Source of the DNA: a virus | Length of the DNA: 25,404 nt | Reading direction: 5' to 3' (one strand) | IMG/VR virus record: IMGVR_UViG_3300033273_000550 | Coordinates: 166,013-191,416 of that record | Shown: positions 3,623 to 24,619 of the stretch, piece after piece | How positions within the stretch are numbered: position 1 is the first letter of the stretch | Layout: every line of letters starts with the position of its first letter | The notes under the pieces: generated by a model | What the model saw: only the letters and a program-made list of their open reading frames with translations | Told to the model about the DNA's origin: nothing | Database searches by the model: none | Made by a program: the position numbers and the translations under genes

Positions 3623-4474
3623 ATGGCTAAAAATGCTGTTTTATCATTAAGTGGAGGAATGGATTCTTCTACATTATTACTACACCTACTTAGAGAGGGG
3701 TATAATGTTACTGCCTTATCGTTTGATTATGGGCAGAAGCATAGAGTAGAGCTAGAAAGAGCTCAACAACTAGTTGATTACGTTAACTCAAAAAGCGTAC
3801 AGCTAGTAGATTACGATTCTTCGCAAGAACAAGCGATTGCAGAACCGAAATTTAATAAGGTTACTTACCAAGTTATTAAGATTGACGGTATTACCTCATT
3901 ACTAAACTCAGCTCTAGTTGAAGGAGGTAGTGATGTACCAGAAGGTCATTACGAGGAAGAAAATATGAAGGATACTGTTGTTCCTAACAGAAATAAAATC
4001 TTCTCTTCTCTTACTCAAGCTGTAGCACTATCTATTGCAAATAAAACTCAAGAAGACACGTTTATTTCCTTGGGAATTCATGCAGGAGATCACGCTATTT
4101 ATCCTGATTGTAGACAAGAATTTAGAGATGCTGATATGGAAGCGTTTCAAGTAGGTAACTGGGATGCAGATAGAGTTAAATTTTATACTCCTTATTTAGA
4201 TACCGATAAATTTGGTATTTTAAAAGATGGAGAGGTTAGCTGTGAAGAGTTAGGCTTAGACTTTAATGAAGTATATGCTAAGACTAATACTTCTTATAAA
4301 CCTTACCCTTCTGGTAACTCAGATTATAAATCAGCATCTTCAGTAGAAAGAATTGAGGCATTTATTTCTCTTGGAAGACCTGATCCGGTTCAATATGAAG
4401 ATGAAACTGGTCCTGTAGATTACGAAGTAGCTAAGTCACACGTAGAAAAGCTATTAGCTGAATACGCAAAATGA
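3623..4474 (+). CDS. queC: 7-cyano-7-deazaguanine synthase (QueC), variant without the C-terminal Zn-binding cysteines
   Basis: PP-loop SLSGGMDSSTLL, FDYGQKH..EL, TVVPNRN and HAGDHAIYPDCRQEF. Confidence 0.95.
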   Translation: MAKNAVLSLSGGMDSSTLLLHLLREGYNVTALSFDYGQKHRVELERAQQLVDYVNSKSVQLVDYDSSQEQAIAEPKFNKVTYQVIKIDGITSLLNSALVEGGSDVPEGHYEEENMKDTVVPNRNKIFSSLTQAVALSIANKTQEDTFISLGIHAGDHAIYPDCRQEFRDADMEAFQVGNWDADRVKFYTPYLDTDKFGILKDGEVSCEELGLDFNEVYAKTNTSYKPYPSGNSDYKSASSVERIEAFISLGRPDPVQYEDETGPVDYEVAKSHVEKLLAEYAK

Positions 4475-6295: not shown

Positions 6296-7971
6296 TCCAA
6301 TTAGGAATATCAGCTTTTTACCATGATTCTGCTGCCTGTTTAGTAGTAGACGGAAAAGTATTATTAGGTGCTGAAGAAGAGAGATTCACAGAAATTAAAC
6401 ATGATCATAGCTTTCCTGTTAATGCTATCTTATATGTACTAAGAGAATCAGGAATCCAAGATATCAATCAAATTGATGAGATTTGTTGGTACGAAATTCC
6501 GGAAGTTAAAAAAAATAGAGTTCTTAAAACTTTTAATAAGAACTTTTTTAAAACATTTAAAAATAGATTAAGATTTTTAAGAGACTATCATTTTAAAAGC
6601 CCAGCTAAATTATTAAAGAAGCATTTTAACTACACTGGTGACATAACATATGTAGATCATCACTTATCACATGCCGGTTTTTCATACTATACCAGCAAAT
6701 ATGAAAACGCTGCTATCTTATCTGTGGATGGAGTAGGAGAGTGGGAGACTGTTTCTATTTACCATGCAAAAGGTGAAGAATTATGGCAGAAGCATAGTTT
6801 TGTTTTTCCTAACTCTCTTGGGATGTTATACTCTACTGTTACTTCATTTTTAGGGTTTAAACCTAACGAAGGAGAATACAAAGTTATGGGATTAGCACCA
6901 TTCGGTGACCCAGAAAAATACTACGGTAAATTATCTAAAATTTTTACTCAAGAGTATCTAGAAATAGACCAAAAATACTTTACATGGGAATATTCTGATA
7001 GAATAATGTTTAATATGGAATTTTGTAAGCTTCTAGGATTGGCACCAAGGTTTAGTGAAGAGCCGATTGAACAAGAACATAAAGATTTAGCAGCTGCATT
7101 ACAAAAAATATATGAAAGAGAGTTTGAAAAATTAGTTATTCTTGCTAAGAATTATACCTCGACAGATAATATATGTTTAAGCGGAGGTTGTGCGTATAAT
7201 GGTGTAGCAAATAAATTAGCCTACAAACATTTTAAATCAGTACACATACCTTACGCACCATCTGATGCTGGATCTGCTATAGGTGCTTGTTTAGTTAGTA
7301 GAGCAGGTAAGAAAGAATCCTTTAATGTTACTCCATATTTAGGACCAAGAGTAAAAGATAGTGACTTTTTACCTATATTAAGTGATTATAAGGATAAATT
7401 AAGCTGGCAAGAGCTTAAGTTTACTGAGCTTACAGCTCAAGTAGCTAAACTATTAGATGAACAGAATATAGTAGCTTGGGTGCAAGGTAGGATGGAGTTC
7501 GGCGCAAGAGCGTTGGGTAACCGCTCTATATTAGCTTCTCCAAAAAATGCTTCGATGAGAGATAAGTTAAATAGGGTAATTAAAAAACGAGAAGGCTTTA
7601 GACCATTTGCTCCTTCTGTTACTCTAGAAACAGCATTTAAACATTTTAATATAGAAGAGCCTGTACCTTATATGAATATAGTAGTTACAGCTAAGGATGA
7701 TGACGGGTTTGCAAGATTTACTCGATTTCCTGCTGCTACTCATATCGACGGTACCTGCAGAGTTCAAACAGTAACACCAGAAATGAATAGTAGATACCAT
7801 CAACTGTTAAAGGCAGTTGGAAGACAGACCGGTGATGAAGTATTATTAAATACCTCATTTAATCTTAAAGATCAGACTATAACGGTCTCTGGTGAACAAG
7901 CAATCAAAAGATATTTAGATTCAGACATTGATTATTTGGTTATCAATAATTATTTAATTTCAAAGAGATGA
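6292..7971 (+). CDS. Carbamoyltransferase (NodU/CmcH/TobZ family)
   Basis: GISAFYHDSAA, EEERF, HHLSHA, DGVGE, EYKVMGLA, GRMEFGARALGNRSILA, KKREGFRPFAPS and LNTSFN. Confidence 0.95.
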   Translation: MIQLGISAFYHDSAACLVVDGKVLLGAEEERFTEIKHDHSFPVNAILYVLRESGIQDINQIDEICWYEIPEVKKNRVLKTFNKNFFKTFKNRLRFLRDYHFKSPAKLLKKHFNYTGDITYVDHHLSHAGFSYYTSKYENAAILSVDGVGEWETVSIYHAKGEELWQKHSFVFPNSLGMLYSTVTSFLGFKPNEGEYKVMGLAPFGDPEKYYGKLSKIFTQEYLEIDQKYFTWEYSDRIMFNMEFCKLLGLAPRFSEEPIEQEHKDLAAALQKIYEREFEKLVILAKNYTSTDNICLSGGCAYNGVANKLAYKHFKSVHIPYAPSDAGSAIGACLVSRAGKKESFNVTPYLGPRVKDSDFLPILSDYKDKLSWQELKFTELTAQVAKLLDEQNIVAWVQGRMEFGARALGNRSILASPKNASMRDKLNRVIKKREGFRPFAPSVTLETAFKHFNIEEPVPYMNIVVTAKDDDGFARFTRFPAATHIDGTCRVQTVTPEMNSRYHQLLKAVGRQTGDEVLLNTSFNLKDQTITVSGEQAIKRYLDSDIDYLVINNYLISKR

Positions 7972-8087: not shown

Positions 8088-8748
8088 ATTAAAAGTTGGA
8101 TTTTTCGGTGACAGTTGGTGTGGCTGTAGCACAAAAAATAAGCAAATATACGATATATCTTGGCCTAATTTACTGACTAAGAAATTAAATGCTGAGCCAT
8201 TGTATACCTGCTTACCCGGTGGTCACTTATTTCATGCATATGAAAAATTAGAAAATCATTTAAATGAAGTAGATTATGCTATAATAGTAGTTAGTGATCC
8301 GTACAGACTACCATCTGAATATCAAATACCAGCTATGAGTGCCGGTTATGATGATGAAGTTGCAGAGAGGCTTTTAGGTAAAAGACAAGCTGATATGTTT
8401 GGTAAGTATGTAGAGTATCATTATAGATTTTTTTCAAGAAAATATTCTGGTATAGCTCAAAAAGGATTATTAAGTGAAATAGATAATATGGTGAAAGATA
8501 AGAAAGCACTTATAATTCCTGGATTTAAGTTATCTATGCAAGGGTACAAAATTACTAATGCAGCATATACAAACTGTACTTTACACTCTATTAAGAGAAA
8601 ACGTTTTGATAAAAATAAAACAATCGCAAATCATCTTAATGAAGAGGAAAATATTGTGTTAGCCAATGCTTTATATGATTTTATAACATCAGATTATAAA
8701 AAAGGTGAATTTGATTTAAAAAAGTATTTTAAATATTTGTATAATTGA
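8068..8748 (+). CDS. SGNH/GDSL hydrolase-like protein
   Basis: N-terminal GFFGDSW (block I) and C-terminal ANHLNEE.N..LA (block V-like). TTG start. Confidence 0.6.
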   Translation: MSTKTSKLKVGFFGDSWCGCSTKNKQIYDISWPNLLTKKLNAEPLYTCLPGGHLFHAYEKLENHLNEVDYAIIVVSDPYRLPSEYQIPAMSAGYDDEVAERLLGKRQADMFGKYVEYHYRFFSRKYSGIAQKGLLSEIDNMVKDKKALIIPGFKLSMQGYKITNAAYTNCTLHSIKRKRFDKNKTIANHLNEEENIVLANALYDFITSDYKKGEFDLKKYFKYLYN

Positions 8749-8765
8749 AAATAAAAGGTTATATT
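8737..8765 (+). promoter_or_regulatory. Putative promoter TTGTAT-17-TATATT for queD-queE-ferredoxin
   Basis: TTGTAT 8737-8742, 17-nt spacer, TATATT 8760-8765. Confidence 0.7.
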
Positions 8766-8776
8766 GTATAGACAAT

Positions 8777-8804
8777 AGTGTCGTAGAACCACTTTAAAAA
8801 CACA
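8777..8804 (+). ncRNA. preQ1-I (type 2-like) riboswitch aptamer in the queD 5' UTR
   Basis: P1 AGTG(8777-80)/CACT(8790-93), loop TCGTAGAAC, tail TTAAAAACACA. This parallels the T. tengcongensis aptamer as I recall it (loop UCGCAGUAAC, tail UUAACAAAACAAG). It ends 2 nt before the ATG of a preQ1 biosynthesis gene. Confidence 0.75.
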
Positions 8805-8806
8805 TT

Positions 8807-9274
8807 ATGGGAAAATTTCAATCAACAAAAGTATTCGATGGCTTTTCGACGGTATTCCGTCAATGGAAAGCAGAAACTACCCACTGTAAATATGTACATG
8901 GGTATGGAGTTTCATTTAAATTATGGTTTGAAGGTGATTTAGATGAAAGAAACTGGGTATGGGACTTCGGCGGAATGAAAAGAGCTAAAGGAAAAATAGA
9001 TGGTATGACTCCAAAAGAATGGATGGATTACATGTTCGATCATACCTTTGTAGTAGCAGAAGATGATCCGTATCTTCAATCATTTGTTAAAATGGATGAA
9101 GCAGGAGTAGCTCAAGTAAGAGTAGTACCTGCAACAGGAGCAGAAAGATTTGCTAAATTTATTTACGATAAAGTTAATCCTTTTATTGAAGAAGAAACAG
9201 AAGGTAGAGTAAAAATAGCAAGAGTAGAATTTAGAGAACATGGTAAAAACTCAGCAATATATGAGCCTAGGTAG
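8807..9274 (+). CDS. queD: 6-carboxy-5,6,7,8-tetrahydropterin synthase (QueD)
   Basis: FRQWKA..HCKYVHGY, WVWDFGG, FDHT, and C-terminal EH..NSA.Y. Confidence 0.93.
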   Translation: MGKFQSTKVFDGFSTVFRQWKAETTHCKYVHGYGVSFKLWFEGDLDERNWVWDFGGMKRAKGKIDGMTPKEWMDYMFDHTFVVAEDDPYLQSFVKMDEAGVAQVRVVPATGAERFAKFIYDKVNPFIEEETEGRVKIARVEFREHGKNSAIYEPR

Positions 9275-10037
9275 AATAGAAGATTATAATAAAACTTTAC
9301 CTATAGTAGAGCTCTATACTGCTGTACAATCAGAAGGATCTAGACAAGGATTTCCTACTATAGTAATACGTACTACAGGTTGTACGCATAGATGTTATTT
9401 CGGAGAAGGTGGATGGTGTGATTCTTGGTATACTTCTATACATCCCGAAAAAGGAAAATATAACTTCCAGGATATCATAGATATGTATAATAGTCATCCG
9501 CATATTAGTGAAATGATGTTGACAGGAGGTTCGCCTACTATGCATAAAAAATTAGTTAATGAATTAACACATTTTGCTAATGAGAGAGATATTTTCATTA
9601 CTATTGAAACTGAAGGAAGTCACTTTCTCCCCACAGACTATCCTATTAACCTTTTATCTATTAGTCCTAAGTTTTCTAATTCTATTCCAGTTATAGGTGT
9701 GGAAACTCCAGAAGGTAAGATAACTGATGATAAGATGATTAAACAGCATAATAAATTTAGAGTAAATGTTGAAGCAATTAAAGAAAGCATTAATTATCAT
9801 TCCGATTACCATATTAAACCGGTTCTTGATAAAGAGCTGTCGATGGTGCCAGAAGTAGAAGAGTTTATTAATAAATTAGAAATTCCTAAAGAAAAAATAT
9901 GGGCAATGCCTGCAGGTGATGATAGAGTTTCACTTTTTGAGAGTTATCCGGTAGTAATGAACTTCGTTAGAGATAAAGGATGGAGATTTACCGGTAGGGC
10001 TCATATTATGGCGTTTGATACCGAAAGAGAAGTATGA
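9261..10037 (+). CDS. queE: 7-carboxy-7-deazaguanine synthase, radical SAM (QueE)
   Basis: E.Y..VQSEG...G.PTI.IRTTGC, CTHRCYFGEGGWCDS, LTGGSP, TIETEG and SISPK. ATG 9261 preferred over 9240. Confidence 0.93.
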   Translation: MSLGRIEDYNKTLPIVELYTAVQSEGSRQGFPTIVIRTTGCTHRCYFGEGGWCDSWYTSIHPEKGKYNFQDIIDMYNSHPHISEMMLTGGSPTMHKKLVNELTHFANERDIFITIETEGSHFLPTDYPINLLSISPKFSNSIPVIGVETPEGKITDDKMIKQHNKFRVNVEAIKESINYHSDYHIKPVLDKELSMVPEVEEFINKLEIPKEKIWAMPAGDDRVSLFESYPVVMNFVRDKGWRFTGRAHIMAFDTEREV

Positions 10038-10288
10038 GTTATATCATAGGATCTAAATGTATAGGAACAAAAGATGGTGCTTGTATAGCTGTTTGCCCAG
10101 TAGATTGTATAGAGGAAGGAGAGGATAGCATGTATATCGACCCTGAAACTTGCATTGACTGTGGTGCTTGTGTGCCAGAATGCCCAGTTGAAGCTATCTT
10201 CGATTCTGAAGAAGATGCAATAGCAGCCGGTGAACTAGAGGCTGTAAAAAATAACTATAAATTTTACAATTTAAAATATGAAAACTAA
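10034..10288 (+). CDS. Dicluster (7Fe/8Fe-type) ferredoxin
   Basis: C.GTKDGACIAVCPVDCI and YIDPETCIDCGACVPECPVEAI. ATGA-coupled to queE. Confidence 0.93.
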   Translation: MSYIIGSKCIGTKDGACIAVCPVDCIEEGEDSMYIDPETCIDCGACVPECPVEAIFDSEEDAIAAGELEAVKNNYKFYNLKYEN

Positions 10289-11098: not shown

Positions 11099-13609
11099 AT
11101 GAGAAATCTCGTTACAATGCTGTTAACATTCTTAACAGTAGGAGCTTACGCTCAACAAGTAGCTGTTAAGGATACAGTCCTGACACAGCAGCTAGAAGAG
11201 GTAGTAGTCTCATCAAGGGTAATTGACGTTGCAAAAGAACGAATTACACCTGTTGCAGTATCTACTATTTCCGCTAGTGACATTTCTTTAAAAACAGGAA
11301 ACTTAGAGTTCCCTGAAATTATGAACAACACCCCAGGTGTTTACGCTACTAAGCAAGGAGGAGGATATGGGGATTCTCGTATCTCACTTCGAGGTTTTGA
11401 TCAGCGTAATACATCTTTCTTAATTAACGGTCAACCCGTTAATGACATGGAAAACGGGTGGGTGTACTGGTCTAACTGGCAAGGATTAACGGACGTTGCT
11501 TCCGGAATCCAAATCCAAAGAGGACTTGGTGCATCAAGACTGGCTGTCCCTTCTGTGGGTGGTACAGTATCTATCTTCACTAAAAGTGCGGATAAAAGAC
11601 AAGGCGGTTCATTTACCCAAGTAGTAGGTAACGACGGGTATACTAAAACGACTGCTGCTTACAACACTGGATTAAATGAAAATGGATGGGCTACATCTGT
11701 TTTATTAAGTAAGTGGGCTGGAGATGGCTATATTTACAACACCAGTGGTGAAGGTTGGACTTACTTCTTTGCATTAGGATATGCACCAGAAGATTCTGAT
11801 CATGCTATTAACTTTTCTTTATTAGGTGCAGGACAATGGCACCACCAAAGAGATGTTTGGGTATCTATTAGAGATTACCAAAACTTTGGTGAAGAAGGAA
11901 TTGATAGAAGATGGAACTCAAACGGTGGTATTTTAAACGGAGAAGAATATAGCCTTAGAAGAAACTTCTATAACAAACCATTAGCTACAATTAACTGGGA
12001 TTGGGACATTTCTGATAATGTTCAATTAAATACATCCCTATATGGTTCAGCTGGTAGAGGTGGTGGAACAGGTCCAAGAGGTAGAAACTACTACAACTCG
12101 GAAACTGATATCTTACCATTTAGAAAAGACCTTACTGAACATTATTTAGAAAATGGTAGAGGTTCAAGATTGGCTAACGGTTTCATCGATTTTGATGCAA
12201 TCGTTCAGTACAATAGAAATAACACTCAAGGATATGATGGAGGAATCTCTGCATATCAAGGAGCTTTAATCGCTTCTAACGGGTACAATGATGATAACGT
12301 AAATAGAGCTGGTCTAGTAAGAAGAGCTTCTATGAACTCTCATGATTGGGTAGGTGCTATTTCAAACTTAGATATTACTGCTGGTAAGATGAGATACTCT
12401 ATCGGAGTAGATTTAAGAAACTACAAAGGTTACCATTATAGAGTACTAAATGATCTATTAGGATTTGATGCTTATTACTCTACTGGTAATAAAAACTCAG
12501 AAGGACAGATTATTGAATCACTAGTTGAAGCAAGTCCATTTCAAAACACTGGAATTAGAGGACCTAAAATCGATTACTACAATATCGGATATGTAGGTTG
12601 GCAAGGTGTTAATGGTTTAGCTGAATACTCAGGAGATGCATTAACTGCTGTAATTCAAGCAGGTCTTTCTAATCAATCATTCCAAAGAGAAGATTTATTT
12701 GATCAACCATCTAACTACCTTTCTGAAAAGAAGAACGTTGGTGGTGGGTATGTTAAAGGTGGCGCAAACTACAACCTAGATGCTAAGTCTAATGTATTCT
12801 TTAACGCAGGGTATATTTCGAGACAGCCTAATTTCGATGCAGTATTCCCTAACTACGCTAATAACGTTAACCCAAATCTACAGAATGAAGAAATTAAATC
12901 TTTAGAACTTGGATACGGATTTATCACAGACAAAGTTAAATTAAACGTAAATATCTACTCTACTAACTGGGGTAATAGATTTGTAACCAGATCTCTTACT
13001 AACCAGCAAGGTGTTGATGGATTTGCTCAATTTAGAGATATCGATGTAACTCACAACGGTGTTGAGATTGAAAGTTCATACAAACCATCTAGTAGAACTA
13101 CATTCAAAGGAATGCTATCAATTGGTGATTGGGAATACGATAATAACTTCGAAGCAGAATTATTTGACGAGAACCAACAATCAATCGGTACAGGTACTTT
13201 ATATACTAAAGGAGCTAAAGTAGGGGATGCTGCACAATTTGTAGCTAACTTTGCAGTCGATCAGAGATTCGGCTCTAAACTTAAAGCTGACCTATCATAT
13301 AGATTCGTTGACGGATTATATGCTGATTATTCAATTACTGATTCAGCATTTACTTCTCCAGATAACGATGGAGCACTTAAATTACCTTCTTATGGTCTTG
13401 TTGACCTAGGAGCTACTTTCTTTGCAGGAAGAGGGTGGAGTTTAAGAGCTAATGTTAATAACGTATTAGACACAACTTATATTGCTGAGTCTAATTCAAA
13501 TATCCATGCAAGTGCAACTTCAACTACATGGAATGGAATTGATGTAAGAAACTCGGTATGGTTCGGATTCGGAAGAACTTGGAACGTATCTCTTAAGAAA
13601 AGATTCTAA
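11099..13609 (+). CDS. TonB-dependent outer-membrane receptor (Bacteroidota type)
   Basis: Signal peptide, LEEVVV TonB-box-like segment, plug ISLRGF..N...LING.PVND, beta-barrel pattern, terminal GRTWNVSLKKRF. Confidence 0.95.
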   Translation: MRNLVTMLLTFLTVGAYAQQVAVKDTVLTQQLEEVVVSSRVIDVAKERITPVAVSTISASDISLKTGNLEFPEIMNNTPGVYATKQGGGYGDSRISLRGFDQRNTSFLINGQPVNDMENGWVYWSNWQGLTDVASGIQIQRGLGASRLAVPSVGGTVSIFTKSADKRQGGSFTQVVGNDGYTKTTAAYNTGLNENGWATSVLLSKWAGDGYIYNTSGEGWTYFFALGYAPEDSDHAINFSLLGAGQWHHQRDVWVSIRDYQNFGEEGIDRRWNSNGGILNGEEYSLRRNFYNKPLATINWDWDISDNVQLNTSLYGSAGRGGGTGPRGRNYYNSETDILPFRKDLTEHYLENGRGSRLANGFIDFDAIVQYNRNNTQGYDGGISAYQGALIASNGYNDDNVNRAGLVRRASMNSHDWVGAISNLDITAGKMRYSIGVDLRNYKGYHYRVLNDLLGFDAYYSTGNKNSEGQIIESLVEASPFQNTGIRGPKIDYYNIGYVGWQGVNGLAEYSGDALTAVIQAGLSNQSFQREDLFDQPSNYLSEKKNVGGGYVKGGANYNLDAKSNVFFNAGYISRQPNFDAVFPNYANNVNPNLQNEEIKSLELGYGFITDKVKLNVNIYSTNWGNRFVTRSLTNQQGVDGFAQFRDIDVTHNGVEIESSYKPSSRTTFKGMLSIGDWEYDNNFEAELFDENQQSIGTGTLYTKGAKVGDAAQFVANFAVDQRFGSKLKADLSYRFVDGLYADYSITDSAFTSPDNDGALKLPSYGLVDLGATFFAGRGWSLRANVNNVLDTTYIAESNSNIHASATSTTWNGIDVRNSVWFGFGRTWNVSLKKRF

Positions 13610-13623: not shown

Positions 13624-13654
13624 AAGGGGAGCCCTTGCGGCTCCCTTTTTTTTT
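13624..13654 (+). terminator. Rho-independent terminator after the TonB receptor gene
   Basis: AAGGGGAGCC-cttgc-GGCTCCCTTT hairpin running into a T9 tract (13646-13654). Confidence 0.9.
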
Positions 13655-13662
13655 CATATATT
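13635..13662 (+). promoter_or_regulatory. Putative promoter TTGCGG-16-TATATT overlapping the terminator
   Basis: TTG in the terminator loop at 13635, TATATT 13657-13662, ATG at 13668. Confidence 0.55.
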
Positions 13663-13667
13663 ATAGT

Positions 13668-14069
13668 ATGGCAAAAAAGGTTGTATTAACGTGGGAGGAT
13701 ATAAACTCTCTATTGGATAAAATTCACAAACAGACACAAGGAAAAATAGATATGGTTACGGGTATACCGAGAGGTGGTACCTTACTGGCGATAATGTATT
13801 CGCATAGGTTTAATGTTGCTTATTTACCTTATATGAGTAACCATTATGAAAGACTTCTAATAATTGATGATATAGCAGATTCAGGAATTACATTTACAAA
13901 GACTAGTAAAGAGTTTCCTAATTGTAAGTATGCTGCTATTCATTATAAAAATACTTCAACTTTTAAACCTGACTTCTACGGATTAGAAATACCAGAAGAT
14001 TATGGATGGATCGTTTATCCGTGGGAAAAAAAAGATTCCAAACCTATACAGGATTATTTGGATAATTGA
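13668..14069 (+). CDS. Type I phosphoribosyltransferase, Gpt (xanthine-guanine PRT)-like
   Basis: GIPRGG, PRPP loop LIIDDIADSGIT, and WIVYPWE. The TTG start at 13635 in the track lies inside the terminator, so ATG 13668 is preferred. Confidence 0.88.
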   Translation: MAKKVVLTWEDINSLLDKIHKQTQGKIDMVTGIPRGGTLLAIMYSHRFNVAYLPYMSNHYERLLIIDDIADSGITFTKTSKEFPNCKYAAIHYKNTSTFKPDFYGLEIPEDYGWIVYPWEKKDSKPIQDYLDN

Positions 14070-14086
14070 GTAAAAAATCATATATT
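14058..14086 (+). promoter_or_regulatory. Putative promoter TTGGAT-17-TATATT for folE and the downstream block
   Basis: TTGGAT 14058-14063, 17-nt spacer, TATATT 14081-14086. Confidence 0.7.
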
Positions 14087-14104
14087 ATATTAAATAAAGT
14101 TTAT

Positions 14105-14785
14105 ATGGGTGATAGTGTAAAAAACGAAATTGAAATTGTAAAGACAGGTTTTGCTAATGGTGTAGCACCTGGTTTTCCATTAACTGAAGATGAGAAATGG
14201 AATGTAGTAGAAGAAGCAGCTGAAGCTTATGGTAAGTTTTTAGATGCATTAGGATGTGATTGGAAGAATGATCCTAACTCAGCTGATACTCCTAGAAGGG
14301 TAGCAAAAGCTTATGTTTTTGATCTTTGGAAAGGTAGATACGATGCTATGAGTGATATTACAGCATTTCCTTCTGATGGATATGACGGTATAGTACAAGA
14401 AAGTAACATACCAGTTACCTCTATGTGTAGTCACCACCACCAGACCATAGCTGGTAGAGTATCGATAGCTTACGTTCCTTCTAAAAATGGTAAGGTTGTA
14501 GGATTATCTAAGTTAAATAGAATTGTAGAGCATTTTGGTAGAAGAGGAGCTATACAGGAGCAACTTACTGTTGCTATTCATAATGCTATCCATGTTATAT
14601 GTGAAGGTAATTTAGGAGTAGCAGTAATGATAGATGCAACTCATAACTGTGTTAGTTGTAGAGGAGTAAAGCATTCAGGAGCATCAATGCAAACAGCTAA
14701 ACTATCAGGTTGTTTTCTAGAAGAAGATGCTGCTAGAGCAGAGTTTTATAAAAATATTGAACTTTCTAGCAAATGTCGAATCTAG
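14105..14785 (+). CDS. folE: GTP cyclohydrolase I
   Basis: TPRRVAK, SMCSHH, VVGLSKLNRIV, IQEQLT and ATHNCVSCRGV. ATG 14105 lies downstream of the promoter. Confidence 0.95.
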   Translation: MGDSVKNEIEIVKTGFANGVAPGFPLTEDEKWNVVEEAAEAYGKFLDALGCDWKNDPNSADTPRRVAKAYVFDLWKGRYDAMSDITAFPSDGYDGIVQESNIPVTSMCSHHHQTIAGRVSIAYVPSKNGKVVGLSKLNRIVEHFGRRGAIQEQLTVAIHNAIHVICEGNLGVAVMIDATHNCVSCRGVKHSGASMQTAKLSGCFLEEDAARAEFYKNIELSSKCRI

Positions 14786-15231
14786 AACACGATATTAGAC
14801 CTTGGGGGGAGTATCAAGTACTCTATGATGGAGAAGACTGTAAAGTAAAACGTATTACAGTTTTACCCGGTAAAAAACTATCACTTCAGTATCACTATAA
14901 AAGAGATGAACTTTGGCAGATCATCTCAGGTAAAGCAAAGTTAGTTATAGGATCTGAAGATCTTAAGTATGAAGAATTTGAGTTGCTTCCTCAAGATGAT
15001 TTCTTTATATTTAGAAAACAACATCACCGTATAGAGAATATAGGTGAAGAAAATTTAGTCTTTATTGAAATACAAACAGGTGACTATTTCGGTGAAGACG
15101 ATATAATAAGATTACAAGATGATTTTGGTAGAGTAGACTTTGATCATTTAAAAGATTGGGTTGATATAAAAGAAGAACAAAAAGCCAACAAAACTGATTG
15201 GTGGAAAAAAATGAGTAAAGATGGCAATTAA
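14773..15231 (+). CDS. Mannose-6-phosphate isomerase type II-like cupin
   Basis: RPWG.Y.VL, LSLQYH..R.E.W and EIQTG.Y.GEDDIIR..DDFGR. Confidence 0.85.
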   Translation: MSNLEHDIRPWGEYQVLYDGEDCKVKRITVLPGKKLSLQYHYKRDELWQIISGKAKLVIGSEDLKYEEFELLPQDDFFIFRKQHHRIENIGEENLVFIEIQTGDYFGEDDIIRLQDDFGRVDFDHLKDWVDIKEEQKANKTDWWKKMSKDGN

Positions 15232-15403
15232 ATTAGACGACCATATAGTAGAAATAGAAGGTATTAGGTATATACCTTATGAAGTAGCAGTAAAAGCAAT
15301 CTCTGAGATAGGAGAAGATCAGATTAATAGAGCTGATGAACTTCTAAATAAACTAGCTTCTGACTTAAATTTAACATTTAAAAATATAGATAAGAATGAT
15401 TAA
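15221..15403 (+). CDS. Hypothetical protein
   Basis: 60-aa ORF overlapping both neighbours. Confidence 0.7.
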   Translation: MAIKLDDHIVEIEGIRYIPYEVAVKAISEIGEDQINRADELLNKLASDLNLTFKNIDKND

Positions 15404-16214
15404 GATAGCTCACGAATCTCCTAAGAGTATATTTGAAGACGTACAAAGATTTACCGATTATGATTATGCGTTAGTTCATTTATTTGAAGAGGATGAGGAG
15501 TATCTTAAAATCTTTGAAAAAGCTGTTAGAAAAGGAAGAGAAGTAATTTTAGATAATTCTATTTTTGAATTAGAAGAAGCTTTTGATGCAGATAAATTTG
15601 CTAAGTGGGTGGATCATTTAAGACCTACCTGGTATATTGTACCGGATGCTTTAGAAGATTCTGTTAAGACATGTAAACAGATGGCTTCTTGGGATAAGAG
15701 GTATTCTGAGTTACCTGGTAAAAAGATAGGAGTAGTTCAAGGTAGAACATATGAGGAAATCGTAAACTGTTACAAGTTTATGGATAATTCTGACGTTGAT
15801 ATGATTGCTATTTCCTTCGACTATTCATACTATACTAAATCAGTACCTCATCCTAATAAGTATGTTAGTTGGATGTTAGGTAGAGTTAAGTTATTAGGAG
15901 ATCTACTTAAGGATGGAGTAATAAACGTAAATAAGAAGCATCATTTATTAGGATGTGGGTTACCGCAAGAGTTTCAATATTACAAGCATGCTGATTATAA
16001 TTGGTTATACTCTCTTGATACTTCTAATCCTGTAGTTCACGGTATTAAGGGAATTAGTTATGCCGATCAAGGACTATGGTCTAAAGAATCTCAAAAACTA
16101 TTTGAACTGATTAACTCAGATGTAAGTATAGACCAGTTAAGTGTTATTAAAAATAATATTCAAAAATTTAGATGGTTTGCAAATGGACAACAAGATGTGG
16201 ATAGCGTTTTTTAG
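15396..16214 (+). CDS. dpdA: TGT-fold / DpdA-like guanine transglycosylase (divergent, DpdA3-like)
   Basis: TGT-like motifs ILDNS.FE, VPD, GVVQG, HHLLGC and SLDTS. Short, lacks the tRNA-TGT Zn domain, and sits in a que gene context. Confidence 0.75.
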   Translation: MIKIAHESPKSIFEDVQRFTDYDYALVHLFEEDEEYLKIFEKAVRKGREVILDNSIFELEEAFDADKFAKWVDHLRPTWYIVPDALEDSVKTCKQMASWDKRYSELPGKKIGVVQGRTYEEIVNCYKFMDNSDVDMIAISFDYSYYTKSVPHPNKYVSWMLGRVKLLGDLLKDGVINVNKKHHLLGCGLPQEFQYYKHADYNWLYSLDTSNPVVHGIKGISYADQGLWSKESQKLFELINSDVSIDQLSVIKNNIQKFRWFANGQQDVDSVF

Positions 16215-16731
16215 TCAGACAGGATCTGAAATTGCCGATATTGCTGAGTCGTTAGGTAGATGGCCTGATAGAATAGTAACTAACGATAGACCAGAGCATC
16301 TTAGAACTATAGATGCTAGAATAGAAAAACAAGGTTACTTTACTTTCAGCAATAAACCTGATGTAGAAGAGTATGCTGACTTACTTACGTACTTTCCGGA
16401 CGCTATCATAACTCTACATGGTTGGTTAAGAATAATGCCTCCTGAGATTTGTGAAAGACATAGAATATTTAATGGTCATCCAGGATTAATAACTGAATAC
16501 CCAGAACTAAAAGGAAAAGATCCTCAGATAAGAGCTTACGAAGGCATTAAAGCTGGAAAATATCTGACTGCTGGAGCAGTTTTACACCACGTAACTGCTG
16601 GAGTTGATGAAGGTAAGGTTATTATGGAAGAATATTTTAATGCGCAAGATTTGTCTCTTGATGAATTATTTCGTATATTGAGAGATAGAAGTTTATATAT
16701 GTGGTGTAATTTTCTTAAAAAGGTTTTATGA
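16183..16731 (+). CDS. PurN-like formyltransferase; candidate preQ1 N-formyltransferase (DpdN-like)
   Basis: FFSQTGSE, LHGWLRIM, IFNGHPGL..YP and GAVLHHVTAGVDEGKVI match the GAR transformylase fold with catalytic N/H/D retained. Overlaps the dpdA-like gene. ATG 16183 preferred. Confidence 0.85.
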   Translation: MDNKMWIAFFSQTGSEIADIAESLGRWPDRIVTNDRPEHLRTIDARIEKQGYFTFSNKPDVEEYADLLTYFPDAIITLHGWLRIMPPEICERHRIFNGHPGLITEYPELKGKDPQIRAYEGIKAGKYLTAGAVLHHVTAGVDEGKVIMEEYFNAQDLSLDELFRILRDRSLYMWCNFLKKVL

Positions 16732-17273
16732 TTACAAGAATAGCATTAGTAGGAGCAAGTAGTACAGGAAAGACTACAGTTTATGAATTACTTAAGTCTA
16801 AGTTACCTAAGTATGAATTTATTAATGAATCAACCCGTTCTGTCGGTCAATATGGATTTCCTATCAATGAAAACGGAACAGATGCTACCCAATTAGCTAT
16901 CAGTTCTTTTCATTTAGAGGCATTACTTAATCCTTATAATCTTGTATTAGATAGATGTTATATGGATCTAGTAGCATACTCTAGATTTATGCCTAATATA
17001 AGCAAAGAAACGTTAAATTACATCTTAGATACATGGAAACGTGTTAAAGGCGAGTATACTCATTATGTGTATTTTCCTATTGAATTTGATTCTGTAGACG
17101 ATGGAGTAAGGAGTATCGATGAGCGATGGAGAAAGGATATAGATGATGAGTTTTTTGAAATGCTACAAGATGTGAGACAACCTTATTTAACTGTGACTGG
17201 ATCACCGATGCAAAGAGTAGAACAAATTATAGATTTTATAGAAAATGGGAAAACAACTACAGCTATTCTCTGA
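16728..17273 (+). CDS. P-loop kinase (AAA_28/NadR-like, dNMP-kinase-like)
   Basis: ALVGASSTGKTT, LVLDRC..D.VAY and DDGVR. ATGA-coupled to the formyltransferase. Confidence 0.8.
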   Translation: MITRIALVGASSTGKTTVYELLKSKLPKYEFINESTRSVGQYGFPINENGTDATQLAISSFHLEALLNPYNLVLDRCYMDLVAYSRFMPNISKETLNYILDTWKRVKGEYTHYVYFPIEFDSVDDGVRSIDERWRKDIDDEFFEMLQDVRQPYLTVTGSPMQRVEQIIDFIENGKTTTAIL

Positions 17274-17826
17274 TCAAGAGATTGGACCTTGCAGCAATCA
17301 TGCTAATGAATACGTTCCGTTTGTATCGGAAGTAGAAGAGTTTAATACTACATTTGGTAAACCTAATAATTATGAACCAACCATCCCTGAAGAAAAAGAA
17401 TGGAAATTCGTATACGACTTTATACTCGAGGAACTTGAGGAGTATAGAGAAGCGTGCGAAAGAGGAGACATCGTGGAAGTTTTGGATGCTTTGTGCGACA
17501 TTGCTTATGTTTCCATTGGGAACGGTACTATGCTACATGGCCTTAAAGATAAGATATGGCCAGCATATCTCGAAGTACAAGCGTCTAATTTATCGAAGGC
17601 TTGCACATCTGAAGAAGAAGCAATTGAAACCGTCAGCGTACGAGCTAAGGAACAAGGTGAGGAGTGTCATTATGAAAAGGTAGGAAAAGTTTTTGTAGTA
17701 TATAGAACTAGAGATAGAAAAGTAATGAAATCAGTTAATTATTTTAGACCTGATTTGACTAAGTTTTTTCAAGAGGAGGAAATAGATAAATGTAGACCTA
17801 ATTTTGATCCCGGTACAATAATTTAA
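17245..17826 (+). CDS. MazG-like / PRA-PH all-alpha NTP pyrophosphohydrolase
   Basis: V.EF..TFG, ILEELEEY, EVLDALCDIAYV and EVQASNLSK. Confidence 0.87.
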   Translation: MGKQLQLFSDQEIGPCSNHANEYVPFVSEVEEFNTTFGKPNNYEPTIPEEKEWKFVYDFILEELEEYREACERGDIVEVLDALCDIAYVSIGNGTMLHGLKDKIWPAYLEVQASNLSKACTSEEEAIETVSVRAKEQGEECHYEKVGKVFVVYRTRDRKVMKSVNYFRPDLTKFFQEEEIDKCRPNFDPGTII

Positions 17827-17836
17827 ATATAATAAT

Positions 17837-18748
17837 ATGTCAGAAGTTAAAAATTATCAAGAAGTAGTAGATATTGCATCTAAGCATTTAGGTAAAGTAG
17901 GAGGCGATGGATACTCAGATCAATATAATAGAGATTTATTGGTTAAGGTACCTAGGTTCTTAAATAGAGAAGGTTACGGATTAACATCAGATAGTTTTGT
18001 TGGTGTTGATGTTTGGAATGCTTATGAAGTATCTGCTATTACTGTAAAAGGTCAACCAGTAGCCGGTATGTTAAAGATAGTATGTCCAGCTGATTCCGAA
18101 TTTCATGTTGAATCTAAATCGATTAAGTTATATTTAAACTCTTTTAATATGACTCAAATTGGTGAAACTGCTGCCGATTGTATTAAAGCAATCGAAGCTA
18201 CTGTAAAAAGAGATTTAGATGAGTTACTAGAAACTGAGACAACTGTATCTTTTTATGCAAGTAGTGAAGAGGCGGAAGTTCTATCTTTCGAAGATTATCA
18301 GGATGTAGCAGATGTAGTAGATTTAGATCAAATAGACTTTACTTCTTTTAAATCAGATGCTTCTCAATTGAAGATTGAGGATACTGATGAGGAAGCTAAG
18401 GTAGTAAAATTAAGATCTAATCTTCTTAGATCAAATTGTAGAGTTACTAACCAACCGGATTGGGGAGATGTATTTATTAAACTTAAAGGTAAACATCTTC
18501 CAGCAGCAGACTCCTTAGCTAAGTATATTGTTAGTCATAGAACCGTTAGTCACTTTCATGAAGAGATATGCGAAATGGTTTTTAAACATATTTCTGATGC
18601 ATATGAACCTGAAGAGCTGATGGTAGCTTGTCTATATACTAGGAGAGGAGGTATAGATATTAATCCTGTAAGAGCAACTCATAGTAGTTTAATACCTGAA
18701 TTCTTTACTAACCCTGATTATTTAATTCAGAAGACTCTAAGACAGTAA
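17837..18748 (+). CDS. queF: NADPH-dependent preQ0 reductase, bimodular (type II) QueF
   Basis: GVDVWNAYE, QueF motif VESKSIKLYLNSFN, catalytic SNCRVTNQPDWG, FHEEICE and YTRRGGIDINP. Confidence 0.95.
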   Translation: MSEVKNYQEVVDIASKHLGKVGGDGYSDQYNRDLLVKVPRFLNREGYGLTSDSFVGVDVWNAYEVSAITVKGQPVAGMLKIVCPADSEFHVESKSIKLYLNSFNMTQIGETAADCIKAIEATVKRDLDELLETETTVSFYASSEEAEVLSFEDYQDVADVVDLDQIDFTSFKSDASQLKIEDTDEEAKVVKLRSNLLRSNCRVTNQPDWGDVFIKLKGKHLPAADSLAKYIVSHRTVSHFHEEICEMVFKHISDAYEPEELMVACLYTRRGGIDINPVRATHSSLIPEFFTNPDYLIQKTLRQ

Positions 18749-19092
18749 TGAAGGCTGGGAAGATTTGGGGGAATACCGAGATGATTCATAAAAATGGAGT
18801 TTTAGAATTCCATAGGATTGAATTTAACGCTGGATATAAATGCTCCGAGCATGAGCATAAATTTAAGTGGAACGGTTTTTTTGTTGAATCTGGTAAAATG
18901 TTAATTAGAGTTTGGCAAGATGATCAAAATTTAGTTGACGAAACGATTCTTAACGCAGGTGAATTCACTATGGTTAAACCAGGTAAATTTCATCAGTTTG
19001 AAGGATTAGAAGACGGTGTTGCTTTTGAACTGTATTGGGCAGAGTTTAATCATGAAGATATTTATAGAAGAACAGTAGGTTCAAAAAGTTAA
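18748..19092 (+). CDS. Small cupin (sugar-isomerase-like)
   Basis: KIWG, CSEHEH..KWNGFFVESG and VKPGKFHQF cupin motifs. Confidence 0.8.
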   Translation: MKAGKIWGNTEMIHKNGVLEFHRIEFNAGYKCSEHEHKFKWNGFFVESGKMLIRVWQDDQNLVDETILNAGEFTMVKPGKFHQFEGLEDGVAFELYWAEFNHEDIYRRTVGSKS

Positions 19093-21761: not shown

Positions 21762-22292
21762 ATGGAAAGTGAATATACTTTAACTATGTATGAGGAAGAT
21801 TTAGGATTTCCTCGAAAAACTTTAGAAAAATATATTAGAGACCCTCAAGCAGCCAGAGACGCAATAATGTACGGCGGTAAACCCTTTTTAACTGAAGAAA
21901 TTATTAAAAATTGGGCTTGTCATTACTTTAGAAGAGATATGAAAGTAGCAAGGACTACTAATAATTTTGGCTTTGATGTAGTTAGTGATGATGGTGAAAT
22001 TTTTATTGAAGTTAAAAGTAGTTGGAAACCTGATTCTAAATACGTATCTTTTAAAAGTATAGGTCAGAAGAAAGATGCTAACGGTGAGTATGCATTTACT
22101 CATATAGCTTTTTATTCTCCTTTATTAGATCCGAATGGAGTTGTTCTTTTTACTAGAAAGCAATTTGTAGAACAAGTTGTTTTACCCCCAGCTGGTAAAT
22201 TAAATATAAAAATGGATCTAAATGAAGGTTATGATAATAATACTTGTCATAAGTCTTCTGTAGCATTTTATAATAATATTAAATGGATGTAA
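21762..22292 (+). CDS. PD-(D/E)XK restriction-endonuclease-like nuclease
   Basis: E.II..W helix followed by GFDVV......IEVKS (D...EXK). Confidence 0.65.
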   Translation: MESEYTLTMYEEDLGFPRKTLEKYIRDPQAARDAIMYGGKPFLTEEIIKNWACHYFRRDMKVARTTNNFGFDVVSDDGEIFIEVKSSWKPDSKYVSFKSIGQKKDANGEYAFTHIAFYSPLLDPNGVVLFTRKQFVEQVVLPPAGKLNIKMDLNEGYDNNTCHKSSVAFYNNIKWM

Positions 22293-24619
22293 TGCAATTA
22301 GAAAAAAAGTACTATACCGTCCAAGACTCAGAGACGTTAAAGTTAATGTTTCAACACATACAAGAGTCAGATATTATCGCAGTCGATACTGAGACTTCAG
22401 GTCTTAATCCTAGAAAGAATAAAATTGTAGGTTGGTCACTCTCAGGAGATGAAGGTATTGGATTTTATATTCCTACTTTAGTGTGGAACTTTGAGAAAGG
22501 TGAGCTAGAGTTGCAGACGATAGATGGTACTTCTACTGAAACTATCTCTAAAAATTTACTAAAAGCGTTAAAAGGTAAAAAATTAGTATTTCATAATGCT
22601 TCTTTTGACGTTCAGTTTATTAAGAACTATTTCGGTATCGATTTGTTACCTGATGTTTGGGTTGATACTGGACTACTTGTTCATACAGTTTATGAAGAAG
22701 GAGCTTTTGGCTATGGTAATCCGTTTGGATTAAAGTCAATTGCTATTATGAATCAAGAAGCTCTAGGGTTAGATGTAGAAAAAGCAGCTAACGAAGAGCA
22801 AATAGAACTAAAAGAAAGTATAAAGAAAAATGGAGGCTCAGTTACTAAAGAAAGTTTTGAAATTTATAAAGCTGATCTTGATATTCTTAGCAAGTATGCC
22901 AGTGCAGATACTGACCTTACTTTACGTATCTGTAACTTATATCTTAAAAAACTTAAAGAAGAAAAATTAGAGAAGTTCTTCTTTGAAGATGAAGTTATGC
23001 CTATCTACCGTGAAGTAACTGTCCCTATGGAAGCTGCAGGTGTTGATTTAGATGTAGAACTTATAGAACAGATTCATGAGGAGATAGTAAAAGATCAAGA
23101 AGAAAATAAAAAGATTGTGATGAAATCTTTACTAGCTCTTTCTGAAGTAAAAGAATGGGTAGTAGCTACTTCTATTACTAACTTTCCTGTATCTCATAAA
23201 GGTAACTGGGCTCAAAGGTTAGTACAAAGATACTCGCTACCTTTACCTAAATCAGAGAAAACCGGAAAATACTCTCTTACTCAGAAGAACATAGAGCAGT
23301 TAGAAGACTCTCCTGTAAAAGAATTCTTACTTACCGGTAATGAAGACTTATTAGAAGACCTTGAAAAAGCTAGGATATCTATGTCGCTATGGAAGGAGTC
23401 TAATGACGGTGAATACATTAATATACAGTCTAAAAAGCACCTTGGAGAGATAGTTTTTGACTATATGGGAATTCAACCTAAAGTTGCTGGTGCTAATACT
23501 AAATCCGGTAGAGCTAAGTTTGATATGGATATGGTTAAGGATTTAGCAAAAGATTATACTTGGGCTGAAAATCTAAGAATTTATAATAAACTACTTAAAA
23601 TTAAATCTACGTATGTAGATAGATTTAGAGATAGAAATGAAGATGGTAAGTACTATTTTTATTTTAAGCAGAACGGTACTGTGTCTGGTCGATACGGTTC
23701 TGATGCTCAGCAACTACCTAAACCTCTAGAAGAAGGAGAAGATGCTCCGATTATTATGAAGTATGTAAACATAGTGAGAGCATTTTTAACTGCCGGTAAA
23801 GGTAGAAAAGTAATTGATGCAGATTACGAATCACTAGAACCTCATTGCTTTGCTTCAGTATCTGGAGATGAGAAGCTTCAAGAAATATTTAATAACGGTT
23901 GGGATTTCTATTCATACGTAGCTATACAGACTGAAAAATTAGAAGGAGTCTCTGCTGATAAAAAAGCTGATAATTACCTTAAAAAGCTAGATCCTGTTAA
24001 GAGAAATAAAGCTAAAGCTTATTCGTTAGGGGTTGCCTACGGAATGGAAGCTTATGCTCTTAAAATGACTTTGGGAGTCGATCAAAAGACTGCAGAAGGT
24101 TTAATTAAAGGTTACTTAGATGGATTCCCAGGTCTAGCTAAATGGAGAGAAAACTCAAGGAGACAGGTTAAGGATAACGGTTTTATTAAAAATTATGTTG
24201 GTAGAGTAAGACATTTACCTAGAGTTAAGAAGATCTATGAAAAGTTTGGTGAGCAGATGATGGATTGGAGATTTAGAAAAGATCTTGAGAATCAAGGATA
24301 TAGTAGAGACGATGTCATTAAAGTTTATAGAGATTATAGAAACGGATTAAATAACTGTTTAAACTTTCAGTTACAGTCTTTAGCAGCAGCGGTAGTAAAC
24401 AGAGCAGCAGTACAGATAAATAGAGCTGCTAAGGAGATGAATATTGATGCTTACGTACAAGCTCAAGTTCATGACCAGTTAATTATAAACGTAGATGAGA
24501 ATCAAGCTGAGGAATTTGCTCCTGTAGTACAGAAGATTATGGAAAATACTACTAAGCTTCCTGGCGTAACCTTAAAAGCACCTCCTGAAATAGCTGATAA
24601 CTGGAGAGATGGACATTAA
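22283..24619 (+). CDS. polA: Family A DNA polymerase with 3'-5' exonuclease and no 5'-3' exonuclease domain (phage type)
   Basis: Exo I AVDTETSGL, Exo II FHNASFD, Exo III YASAD; motif A DADYESLEP, motif B R.KAKAYSLGVAYG, motif C QVHDQL. The start may be ATG 22292. Confidence 0.95.
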   Translation: MDVMQLEKKYYTVQDSETLKLMFQHIQESDIIAVDTETSGLNPRKNKIVGWSLSGDEGIGFYIPTLVWNFEKGELELQTIDGTSTETISKNLLKALKGKKLVFHNASFDVQFIKNYFGIDLLPDVWVDTGLLVHTVYEEGAFGYGNPFGLKSIAIMNQEALGLDVEKAANEEQIELKESIKKNGGSVTKESFEIYKADLDILSKYASADTDLTLRICNLYLKKLKEEKLEKFFFEDEVMPIYREVTVPMEAAGVDLDVELIEQIHEEIVKDQEENKKIVMKSLLALSEVKEWVVATSITNFPVSHKGNWAQRLVQRYSLPLPKSEKTGKYSLTQKNIEQLEDSPVKEFLLTGNEDLLEDLEKARISMSLWKESNDGEYINIQSKKHLGEIVFDYMGIQPKVAGANTKSGRAKFDMDMVKDLAKDYTWAENLRIYNKLLKIKSTYVDRFRDRNEDGKYYFYFKQNGTVSGRYGSDAQQLPKPLEEGEDAPIIMKYVNIVRAFLTAGKGRKVIDADYESLEPHCFASVSGDEKLQEIFNNGWDFYSYVAIQTEKLEGVSADKKADNYLKKLDPVKRNKAKAYSLGVAYGMEAYALKMTLGVDQKTAEGLIKGYLDGFPGLAKWRENSRRQVKDNGFIKNYVGRVRHLPRVKKIYEKFGEQMMDWRFRKDLENQGYSRDDVIKVYRDYRNGLNNCLNFQLQSLAAAVVNRAAVQINRAAKEMNIDAYVQAQVHDQLIINVDENQAEEFAPVVQKIMENTTKLPGVTLKAPPEIADNWRDGH

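Follow-up and report, generated by a model that had tools for sequence, protein, structure and literature searches.

A DpdA3/DpdN gene pair predicted to formylate preQ1 in the DNA of an uncultured Immutovirus-like phage

The stretch of DNA analyzed here, referred to as the window, has a length of 25,404 nucleotides (nt) and corresponds to the last 25.4 kb (166,013-191,416) of the 191,416-bp IMG/VR virus record IMGVR_UViG_3300033273_000550. All its genes are located on the plus strand, and its GC content is ~33%. The segment at 13635-19092 contains, in a gapless arrangement, genes for a small purine phosphoribosyltransferase (PRTase), FolE, a cupin, a 60-amino-acid (aa) open reading frame (ORF), DpdA3, DpdN, an AAA_28 P-loop protein, MazG, QueF, and a second cupin. 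An earlier note on this DNA, made from the letters alone, had recognized a DpdA-like and a PurN-like ORF on the plus strand, and both are present as described; these are the genes for DpdA3, which resembles a tRNA-guanine transglycosylase (TGT), and for DpdN, a predicted N-formyltransferase, and they are the subject of this study. The window also holds the full FolE-QueD-QueE-QueC-QueF route to preQ1. We consider it likely, with a probability of about 0.85, that this locus makes DNA containing a formylated deazaguanine, by means of preQ1 synthesis, base exchange by DpdA3, and N-formylation by DpdN. This reading is based on homology, folds, conserved residues, synteny, and gene fusions, from which the substrates, the order of the steps, and the final chemistry are inferred.

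The nearest cultured relatives of this phage are the Flavobacterium phages vB_FspM_immuto (Immutovirus). The DNA of immuto_2-6A contains dA, dC, dT, and 7-(formylamino)methyl-7-deazaguanine (fdPreQ1), which was assigned with a synthetic standard and is the sole G-type nucleoside, with no dPreQ1 being present (PMC10516641). In the same study, DpdA3 of phage phiST, of Campylobacter phages, and of immuto was defined as the subfamily associated with complete replacement (Cui, Hutinet et al., NAR 2023, PMC10516641), and the PF00551 protein KNV73_gp067 as well as three metagenomic homologs were predicted to be DpdN (PMC10516641). The paper on formyl-dPreQ1 and DpdN in a Flavobacterium phage to which the earlier note had referred is thus real; we found no later literature on DpdA3 or DpdN. 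The comparison with the DpdA and DpdN references that the note had proposed returned DpdA3 and DpdN of immuto as the best matches, and they are also syntenic.

The best phage match of the window's DpdA3 is the annotated DpdA of immuto_2-6A (immuto26A_65), with 73.8% identity over 98% of the length (E = 1e-128), and the protein shares ~43% identity (E ~1e-48) with a hypothetical protein of the Campylobacter CP220-group phages (CP220 gp056). It has no match in Pfam or NCBIfam. A search of the single sequence against the chains of the Protein Data Bank (PDB) returned nothing meaningful, and the top match of a profile search was the bacterial DpdA structure 7ui4, which is weak (E = 0.23). Alignment of the DpdA3 profile with Escherichia coli Tgt by hhalign gave a probability of no more than 24% and was in register at the QG and LLG motifs. 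Since these sequence searches were weak, the relationship between DpdA3 and TGT had to be addressed at the level of the fold. An AlphaFold2 (AF2) model was generated from 63 diverse homologs, which also served to define invariant residues, and had a predicted local distance difference test (pLDDT) score of 97.4. The structures retrieved with this model by Foldseek were TGTs almost throughout (E ~1e-8), with bacterial DpdA 7ui4 at rank 19, and alignments with TGT, ArcTGT, and DpdA by VIA-align covered 235-240 of the 272 residues with Z scores of 17.5-18.3. As judged from its model, DpdA3 is a TGT-like (beta/alpha)8 barrel.

A number of observations can be made on the active site of this barrel. 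(i) Invariant in the 63 sequences are D53, D84, H183, L185, G186, and D208. (ii) The segment HLLG...SLDTSNP aligns with HLLG...SIDSTTP of 7ui4, the sole DpdA-family PDB match of the profile (weak, E = 0.23). According to this weak match, D208 occupies the position of Asp256 and L185 that of Leu236 of bacterial DpdA, a 20-residue tag offset having been set by Leu236. Asp256 is the experimentally essential nucleophile of the bacterial enzyme (PMC10164549); its equivalent in TGT is Asp280. (iii) D53-x-x-x-F57 and P83-D84 are invariant, and judged by sequence spacing alone they resemble Asp95/Phe99 and Asp130 of DpdA, where Asp95 is the general acid/base and Asp130 binds the base. (iv) Its cysteines are limited to C93, C125, and C187; there is no CxC motif, and no cysteine follows D208, the putative nucleophile, beyond which there are 64 residues. 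This short C-terminal part and the missing Cys motif indicate that DpdA3 lacks both the CxCx2Cx22H zinc site and the Ins8 insertion, which are conserved in DpdA and TGT and form the surface that binds DNA or tRNA. (v) The family is acidic, with a median isoelectric point (pI) of 5.5 and a net charge of -8.

The second gene of the pair most likely starts at ATG 16183 (MDNKMW, 182 aa), or else at ATG 16195 (MW, 178 aa), as indicated by homologs and by the gene call on the record. The earlier note had described the two genes as overlapping, and the overlap is real: it amounts to 32 nt (ATG 16183) or 20 nt (ATG 16195) in different frames. A start at 16141, a GTG that would result in an overlap of 74 nt, belongs to the longest possible frame; with the start codon excepted, the earlier description holds. 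DpdN shares 51.7% identity (E = 1e-55) with immuto26A_67 (KNV73_gp067), and the next phage match has 28% identity (E = 3e-4). The score against PF00551 (Formyl_trans_N) is 32.3 bits, above the cut-off of 26.1, and that against the PurN equivalog TIGR00639 is 36.3 bits, with a cut-off of 150.1. An AF2 model of DpdN, built from an alignment without the immuto sequence, had a pLDDT of 87.7 and matched PurN structures with a Z score of 19.9 and a root mean square deviation of 2.2 Å over 172 of 182 residues. In agreement with the claim that the catalytic Asn/His/Asp of PurN is kept, N97, H99, and D142 correspond to Asn106, His108, and Asp144 of E. coli PurN in the hhalign alignment and are invariant in 27 DpdN sequences, two very divergent ones included. 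The reported alteration of the loop that binds the phosphate of glycinamide ribonucleotide (GAR) is likewise seen: DpdN has SQTGSE (residues 11-16), whereas PurN has SGNGSN. The β1-loop-α1 element to which this loop belongs, the GAR-phosphate binder in PurN, is retained and invariant in DpdN, where FFSQTG-x-E is conserved throughout the same 27 sequences (S, Q, T, G, and E of SQTGSE being invariant), and the proteins of the window and of immuto have the longer form W-x-x-FFSQTG-x-EI in common. DpdN is the only Formyl_trans_N protein encoded in the 191-kb genome. The window contains no pur genes, as had been noted, and no PurD (GARS_A) was found in the 191-kb genome.

The conservation of the pair was analyzed in IMG/VR, where at least 525 contigs carry a DpdA3 relative. 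Among metagenomic proteins, DpdA3 and DpdN each have thousands of relatives, those of DpdA3 forming 1,562 clusters (50% identity) at E <= 1e-3, 293 of which are retained at 1e-30. Counts of loci are derived from the best 80 (50-76% identity); 63 of these were informative in that 1.5 kb or more is available 3' of DpdA3. DpdN is present in 61 of the 63 informative loci, mostly abutting or overlapping DpdA3, and its match begins at most ~50 nt from the end of the DpdA3 match in 44 of 68 loci. More than 100 DpdN clusters reach an identity of 72% or more to the DpdN of the window, and none of the 120 matches listed falls below this value. AAA_28 follows directly 3' of DpdN in 56 of 60 loci with both genes, and both DpdN and QueF are present in 43 of the 45 loci that have at least 4 kb of flank on both sides. 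MazG and PRTase are common in close relatives; they are not found near DpdA3 in more distant lineages, which retain DpdA3, DpdN, AAA_28, and QueF. The gene order MazG, DpdA3, DpdN, AAA_28 is that of immuto and most close relatives. Two divergent natural fusions of DpdA3 with DpdN, each of 447 aa, were identified (P0281, L010 2262-3605; P0331, L009 554-1897); both have a clean translation from the contig and an adjoining AAA_28 gene, and L010 also contains QueC and QueF. The locus L086 (8978-11468; DpdA3 with 53% identity) has a 2-oxoglutarate (2OG)-Fe(II) oxygenase two genes 5' of DpdA3 and a DUF6445 protein between DpdA3 and DpdN, with MazG and PRTase not nearby; its base may be subject to further tailoring.

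The AAA_28 protein belongs to the NadR-RNK family PF13521 and has weak similarity to dTMP kinase and deoxynucleoside kinases. It shares 68% identity with its counterpart in immuto and 33% (E = 5e-17) with CP220 gp057, which is annotated as a thymidylate kinase. Phage CP220, which makes ADG and is without QueF and DpdN, encodes DpdA3 (gp056) between gp055, a fusion of an HD phosphohydrolase with an AAA_33 kinase, and the AAA_28 protein gp057 (L003 7862-10355). CP220 gp056 has a weak match to DUF6610, the family of DpdA4.

A GNAT-type protein is encoded near DpdA3 in three relatives that are without DpdN, two of which have it in the DpdN slot; L039 and L051 are the two informative loci of this kind. 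In L039 (= L177; 6123-7079), the gene after DpdA3 encodes AAA_28 fused to a C-terminal GNAT-like domain, and the same fusion is found on the independent contig L178 (6001-6951), with 78% identity over the whole protein and 66% in the C-terminal domain. Contigs with such an AAA_28-GNAT gene are IMGVR_UViG_3300024264_002661 and 3300025771_003930. The assignment to GNAT in L039 is based on a sub-threshold match to Acetyltransf_10 (E = 0.0023), on the acetyl-CoA motif HKGKGLGS, and on language-model neighbors, the nearest of which are GNAT clusters; the C-terminal domain had no PDB sequence match. QueF and PolA follow as usual. In the third relative, L051, the genes that follow DpdA3 encode a homing-endonuclease-like protein, a HAD-like/GNAT protein of 508 aa (3327-4853, E = 2e-11), and AAA_28. 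These loci suggest that the trait under selection is the N-acylation of the preQ1 aminomethyl group, which lends indirect support to the proposal in the earlier note that neutralizing the positive charge of preQ1 matters, and they predict an N-acetyl-preQ1 DNA base, not yet described, in the GNAT-bearing lineages. DpdA3 of DpdN lineages and of GNAT-bearing lineages is 66-70% identical to that of the window, so the simplest explanation is that all of them insert preQ1 and that acylation takes place afterwards.

Taken together, these data allow us to propose a route. GTP would be converted into the free base preQ1 by FolE, QueD, QueE (with the ferredoxin), QueC, and QueF of the phage. The last of these has both Pfam domains, intact motifs, and a catalytic cysteine in an NCxVTxQPDW context. 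DpdA3, which is a TGT-type barrel reduced to a minimum and contains three invariant Asp residues, would then swap guanine for preQ1 at the glycosidic bond, and DpdN would transfer the formyl group of 10-formyl-tetrahydrofolate to the 7-aminomethyl nitrogen, leaving a neutral formamide. By analogy with immuto, fdPreQ1 would replace most or all of the G in the phage DNA, which would then resist G-dependent restriction enzymes. We favor an order in which exchange comes first and the base is acylated once it is linked to the sugar phosphate, because DpdA3 of the GNAT and DpdN lineages is alike and because DpdN keeps the GAR-phosphate loop element. By orthology, synteny, and the complete preQ1 route, the pair is a further example of the published DpdA3/DpdN system, as the earlier note had anticipated, in an Immutovirus-like phage of marine Flavobacteriales, and not a new system. 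A number of points weigh against this interpretation. (i) The phage is represented by an IMG/VR contig and not by a culture, and its base is deduced from genes. (ii) DpdN is unvalidated even in immuto, and DpdA3 activity was not demonstrable in E. coli (PMC10516641). (iii) DpdA3 has no significant sequence-level match to TGT (nothing for PF01702 at E <= 1; E = 0.23 for the profile against DpdA 7ui4). (iv) The identity of DpdN to the reference is no higher than 52%, and a shifted acyl acceptor is conceivable. (v) A carbamoyltransferase, a 2OG oxygenase, and a methyltransferase are also encoded in the window and could further modify the base or the DNA.

Table 1. Genes and residues of the deazaguanine locus, in positions of the window.
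Feature	Position	Strand	Evidence
QueC (preQ0 synthase)	3623..4474	+	PF06508 E=2e-37
QueD (CPH4 synthase)	8807..9274	+	PF01242 E=2e-14; 73% identity to immuto QueD
QueE (radical-SAM CDG synthase)	9240..10037	+	Radical_SAM match; 70% identity to immuto QueE
2x[4Fe-4S] ferredoxin, directly after QueE	10034-10288	+	Fer4 matches
Small type-I purine PRTase, xanthine/guanine-PRT-like	13668..14069	+	PF00156 E=4e-8; PRPP motif LLIIDDIADSG
FolE (GTP cyclohydrolase I)	14066..14785	+	PF01227 E=3e-43
60-aa ORF overlapping dpdA3 start	15221..15403	+	same-position ORFs of similar size in relatives
DpdA3-type 7-deazaguanine transglycosylase (putative), minimal TGT barrel	15396..16214	+	272 aa; 74% identity to immuto DpdA3
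DpdA3 residues D53; D84; D208 (putative nucleophile)	15552-15554; 15645-15647; 16017-16019	+	invariant columns
DpdN, PurN-fold N-formyltransferase (predicted)	16183..16731	+	52% identity to immuto DpdN; PF00551
DpdN SQTGSE loop; N97; H99; D142	16213-16230; 16471-16473; 16477-16479; 16606-16608	+	hhalign to E. coli PurN
AAA_28 P-loop protein, nucleoside/nucleotide-kinase-like	16728..17273	+	PF13521 E=8e-17; start overlaps DpdN stop (ATGA)
MazG-type NTP pyrophosphohydrolase	17245..17826	+	PF01503 E=6e-10; phrog_671; 79% identity to immuto
QueF, two-domain type (preQ0 -> preQ1)	17837..18748	+	QueF_N + QueF domains; ESKSIKLY motif
Family A DNA polymerase with 3'-5' exonuclease, which would have to copy or use the modified base	22283..24619	+	PF00476 E=9e-58; syntenic in relatives

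The record is rated as complete by CheckV. An S-adenosylmethionine synthetase gene at 24630-25403 of the window runs off the contig end, and its apparent C-terminal part is found at genome positions 1-150; the split gene indicates that the record, though listed as linear, is probably a circularly permuted complete genome. When the 5.5-kb core was compared with phage genomes by megablast, the only DNA-level match to immuto was the MazG segment (81% identity), so the kinship with immuto, with which the window is syntenic at the protein level, is visible mainly among proteins. A ribonucleotide reductase is encoded just upstream of the window, and neither FolD, which would supply formyl-tetrahydrofolate, nor ThyA/thymidylate synthase was found in the 191-kb genome. 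Canonical TGT (PF01702) had no match at E <= 1 anywhere in the genome. For the PRTase gene, the likely start is ATG 13668, the longest ORF beginning at TTG 13635; its product matches the xanthine PRTase model NF006613 with E = 1e-10, under the cut-off of that model, and is present in many close relatives and absent from distant ones. The 60-aa ORF has similar-sized counterparts in immuto and L004, and those in L039 and L178 share 34-40% identity with it. No Rfam preQ1 riboswitch family was detected upstream of queD (8777-8806) in a search of 8700-8860 at gathering thresholds or E <= 10.

Other genes lie within or next to the deazaguanine cluster. An 836-aa TonB-dependent receptor (Plug and beta-barrel) is encoded inside it at 11099-13609 (+), with a GC content of ~0.39 compared to ~0.32 nearby. 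Its identity to a housekeeping receptor from metagenome-assembled genomes of marine Flavobacteriales reaches 77%, and none of the 80 related phage loci contains it. The gene was probably acquired recently from the host, and it points to a host among marine Flavobacteriales. A link of this receptor to bacterial queuosine genes was considered and rejected, since its bacterial neighbors are an M23 peptidase and a phosphoglucose isomerase. Between QueC and QueD (4471-7971, +) are genes for an adenylylsulfate (APS)-kinase-like P-loop protein, a 2OG-Fe(II) oxygenase, and a 559-aa NodU/CmcH-type carbamoyltransferase. Of the 80 related loci, 11 have the latter in the vicinity of the cluster, at 57-67% identity, and immuto is without it; this enzyme may be part of a second modification, of DNA or of sugar.

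The product fdPreQ1 could be reached at two different levels, and for each of them the odds are somewhat short of even. In the published view, to which we give somewhat less than an even chance, the base is exchanged on finished DNA: all characterized TGT-superfamily enzymes act on polynucleotides, and insertion was proposed to be post-replicative (PMC10516641). In the other scenario, which we likewise rate at somewhat less than an even chance, DpdA3 would exchange the base on a free deoxynucleotide or deoxynucleoside before replication. MazG would convert dGTP to dGMP, DpdA3 would swap its guanine for preQ1, and DpdN would formylate the resulting monophosphate, which resembles GAR in being a ribose-5-phosphate with a CH2-NH2 arm. 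AAA_28 would phosphorylate the product, the nucleoside diphosphate kinase of the host would provide the triphosphate, and PolA of the phage would incorporate it, while the PRTase would recycle the freed guanine to GMP/GTP for FolE. C7-substituted 7-deaza-dGTPs are good polymerase substrates. AAA_28 resembles small-molecule kinases, follows DpdN in nearly all loci, and also flanks DpdA3 of CP220, which has the phosphohydrolase-kinase fusion on its other side. MazG or HD phosphohydrolases are often neighbors of DpdA3, and the gene order in immuto and most close relatives parallels the proposed steps. DpdA3 is without the DNA- or tRNA-binding Ins8 and zinc site, its family is acidic, and DpdN retains the phosphate-loop element. 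Furthermore, replacement is 100% in DpdA3 phages, and cells infected with CP220 are reported to contain the ADG nucleoside in their cytoplasm (as related in PMC10516641). On the other hand, the DNA-level bacterial DpdA also needs a P-loop partner, the ATPase DpdB (PMC10164549), and the link to AAA_28 therefore does not discriminate between the two levels. The more distant lineages have no MazG or PRTase close to DpdA3, MazG of the window is located after the kinase and not 5' of DpdA3, and DNA binding is poorly predicted by the overall pI. The full scheme, in which DpdA3 is a guanine/preQ1 exchanger on free deoxyguanosine nucleotides, MazG, DpdA3, DpdN, and AAA_28 form a pre-replicative pathway to fdPreQ1 triphosphate, and the acyl step is modular with N-acetyl-preQ1 in the GNAT lineage, is put forward as a tentative and rather doubtful proposal.

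Two further alternatives concern DpdN. Formylation of the free base, with DpdA3 then inserting formyl-preQ1, is improbable in our view. It would agree with the description of DpdN as a "preQ1 or dPreQ1 formylase" (PMC10516641) and with the DpdA3-DpdN fusions, which could channel a free base, and DpdA3 members must already accept varied 7-substituents (ADG/CDG in CP220, DG in phiST; PMC10516641). However, the invariant GAR-phosphate-type loop would then be without a role, and similar DpdA3 proteins (66-70%) with GNAT instead of DpdN would each need their own base specificity. That the PurN-like gene encodes an ordinary auxiliary GAR transformylase, as in some cyanophages, and that the DNA contains unformylated dPreQ1, is very improbable. 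The Formyl_trans_N domain, the intact Asn/His/Asp, PurN as the top structural match, and a weak match to the PHROG of cyanophage PurN are what such an enzyme would show, but the protein scores 36 bits against a PurN cut-off of 150, shares ~20% identity with PurN structures, and is strictly adjacent to, overlapping, or fused with DpdA3 across 61 of 63 loci, in a genome without PurD or other pur genes. In addition, immuto, which has the ortholog, contains fdPreQ1 and no dPreQ1 (PMC10516641).

By itself, the locus does no more than add an uncultured phage to those with the published system. The DpdA3/DpdN family is nevertheless very common in aquatic viromes, and many phages of marine Bacteroidota may thus evade restriction by replacing all of their G with an acylated 7-deazaguanine. 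The fusions, the near-constant kinase-like partner, the exchange of DpdN for GNAT, and the loss of the nucleic-acid-binding insertion offer handles on the question of whether DNA or nucleotides are the substrate, and acetyl-preQ1 is a possible new base. Exchange on the nucleotide pool, if it holds true, would account for 100% replacement being limited to DpdA3 phages.

The locus can be compared with several known systems. The most similar is that of immuto, with which it shares a syntenic block including DpdA3 (74%), DpdN (52%), AAA_28 (68%), MazG (79%), and QueF (62%), as well as FolE, QueD, QueE, and PolA. The genome of immuto has 160 kb, compared to 191 kb here; its MazG is located 5' of DpdA3 and not after the kinase, and it has a small ORF between dpdA3 and dpdN where the window has a 32-nt overlap. 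The cluster of the window additionally contains two cupins, the carbamoyltransferase, the 2OG oxygenase, the APS-kinase-like gene, and the TonB-dependent receptor. In phages with Z genomes (2-aminoadenine), PurZ acts together with MazZ and DatZ, and one purine is wholly replaced. A similarity to these phages is that a MazG-type pyrophosphohydrolase (an HD phosphohydrolase in CP220) adjoins the base-changing enzyme, a pattern expected for a pre-replicative route; in contrast, PurZ is a homolog of adenylosuccinate synthetase unrelated to DpdA3, for which action on nucleotides is a hypothesis. E. coli PurN (1CDE/1GAR) and DpdN have in common the single-domain fold over model residues 4-182, the Asn/His/Asp, and the presumed use of 10-formyl-tetrahydrofolate. 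They differ in sequence (~20% identity) and in the loop (SGNGSN and SQTGSE, respectively); DpdN is without ~25 C-terminal residues, and its context is deazaguanine and not purine genes. The bacterial DpdA/DpdB DNA preQ0 insertase (Salmonella Montevideo, 7UI4, PMC10164549) and TGT share with DpdA3 the TIM barrel, the Asp equivalent to Asp256, and a leucine (Leu185) at the position of Leu236, and the bacterial system also has a P-loop NTPase partner gene; the D-x-x-x-F and P-D motifs of DpdA3 are spaced like Asp95/Phe99 and Asp130 of DpdA, to which they may correspond. Unlike them, DpdA3 has neither the CxCx2C...H zinc site nor Ins8, is ~140 residues shorter, lacks a Pfam TGT match, and is acidic, and the partner is a kinase-like AAA_28 protein here and the ParB-like DpdB in bacteria. 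Finally, DpdM, the dPreQ1 N-methyltransferase of Cellulophaga phage phiSM and Vibrio phage VH7D, tailors the same 7-aminomethyl nitrogen of preQ1 (PMC10516641). DpdM has an unrelated fold and transfers a methyl instead of a formyl group, and it has been validated in vivo, whereas DpdN is predicted (PMC10516641).

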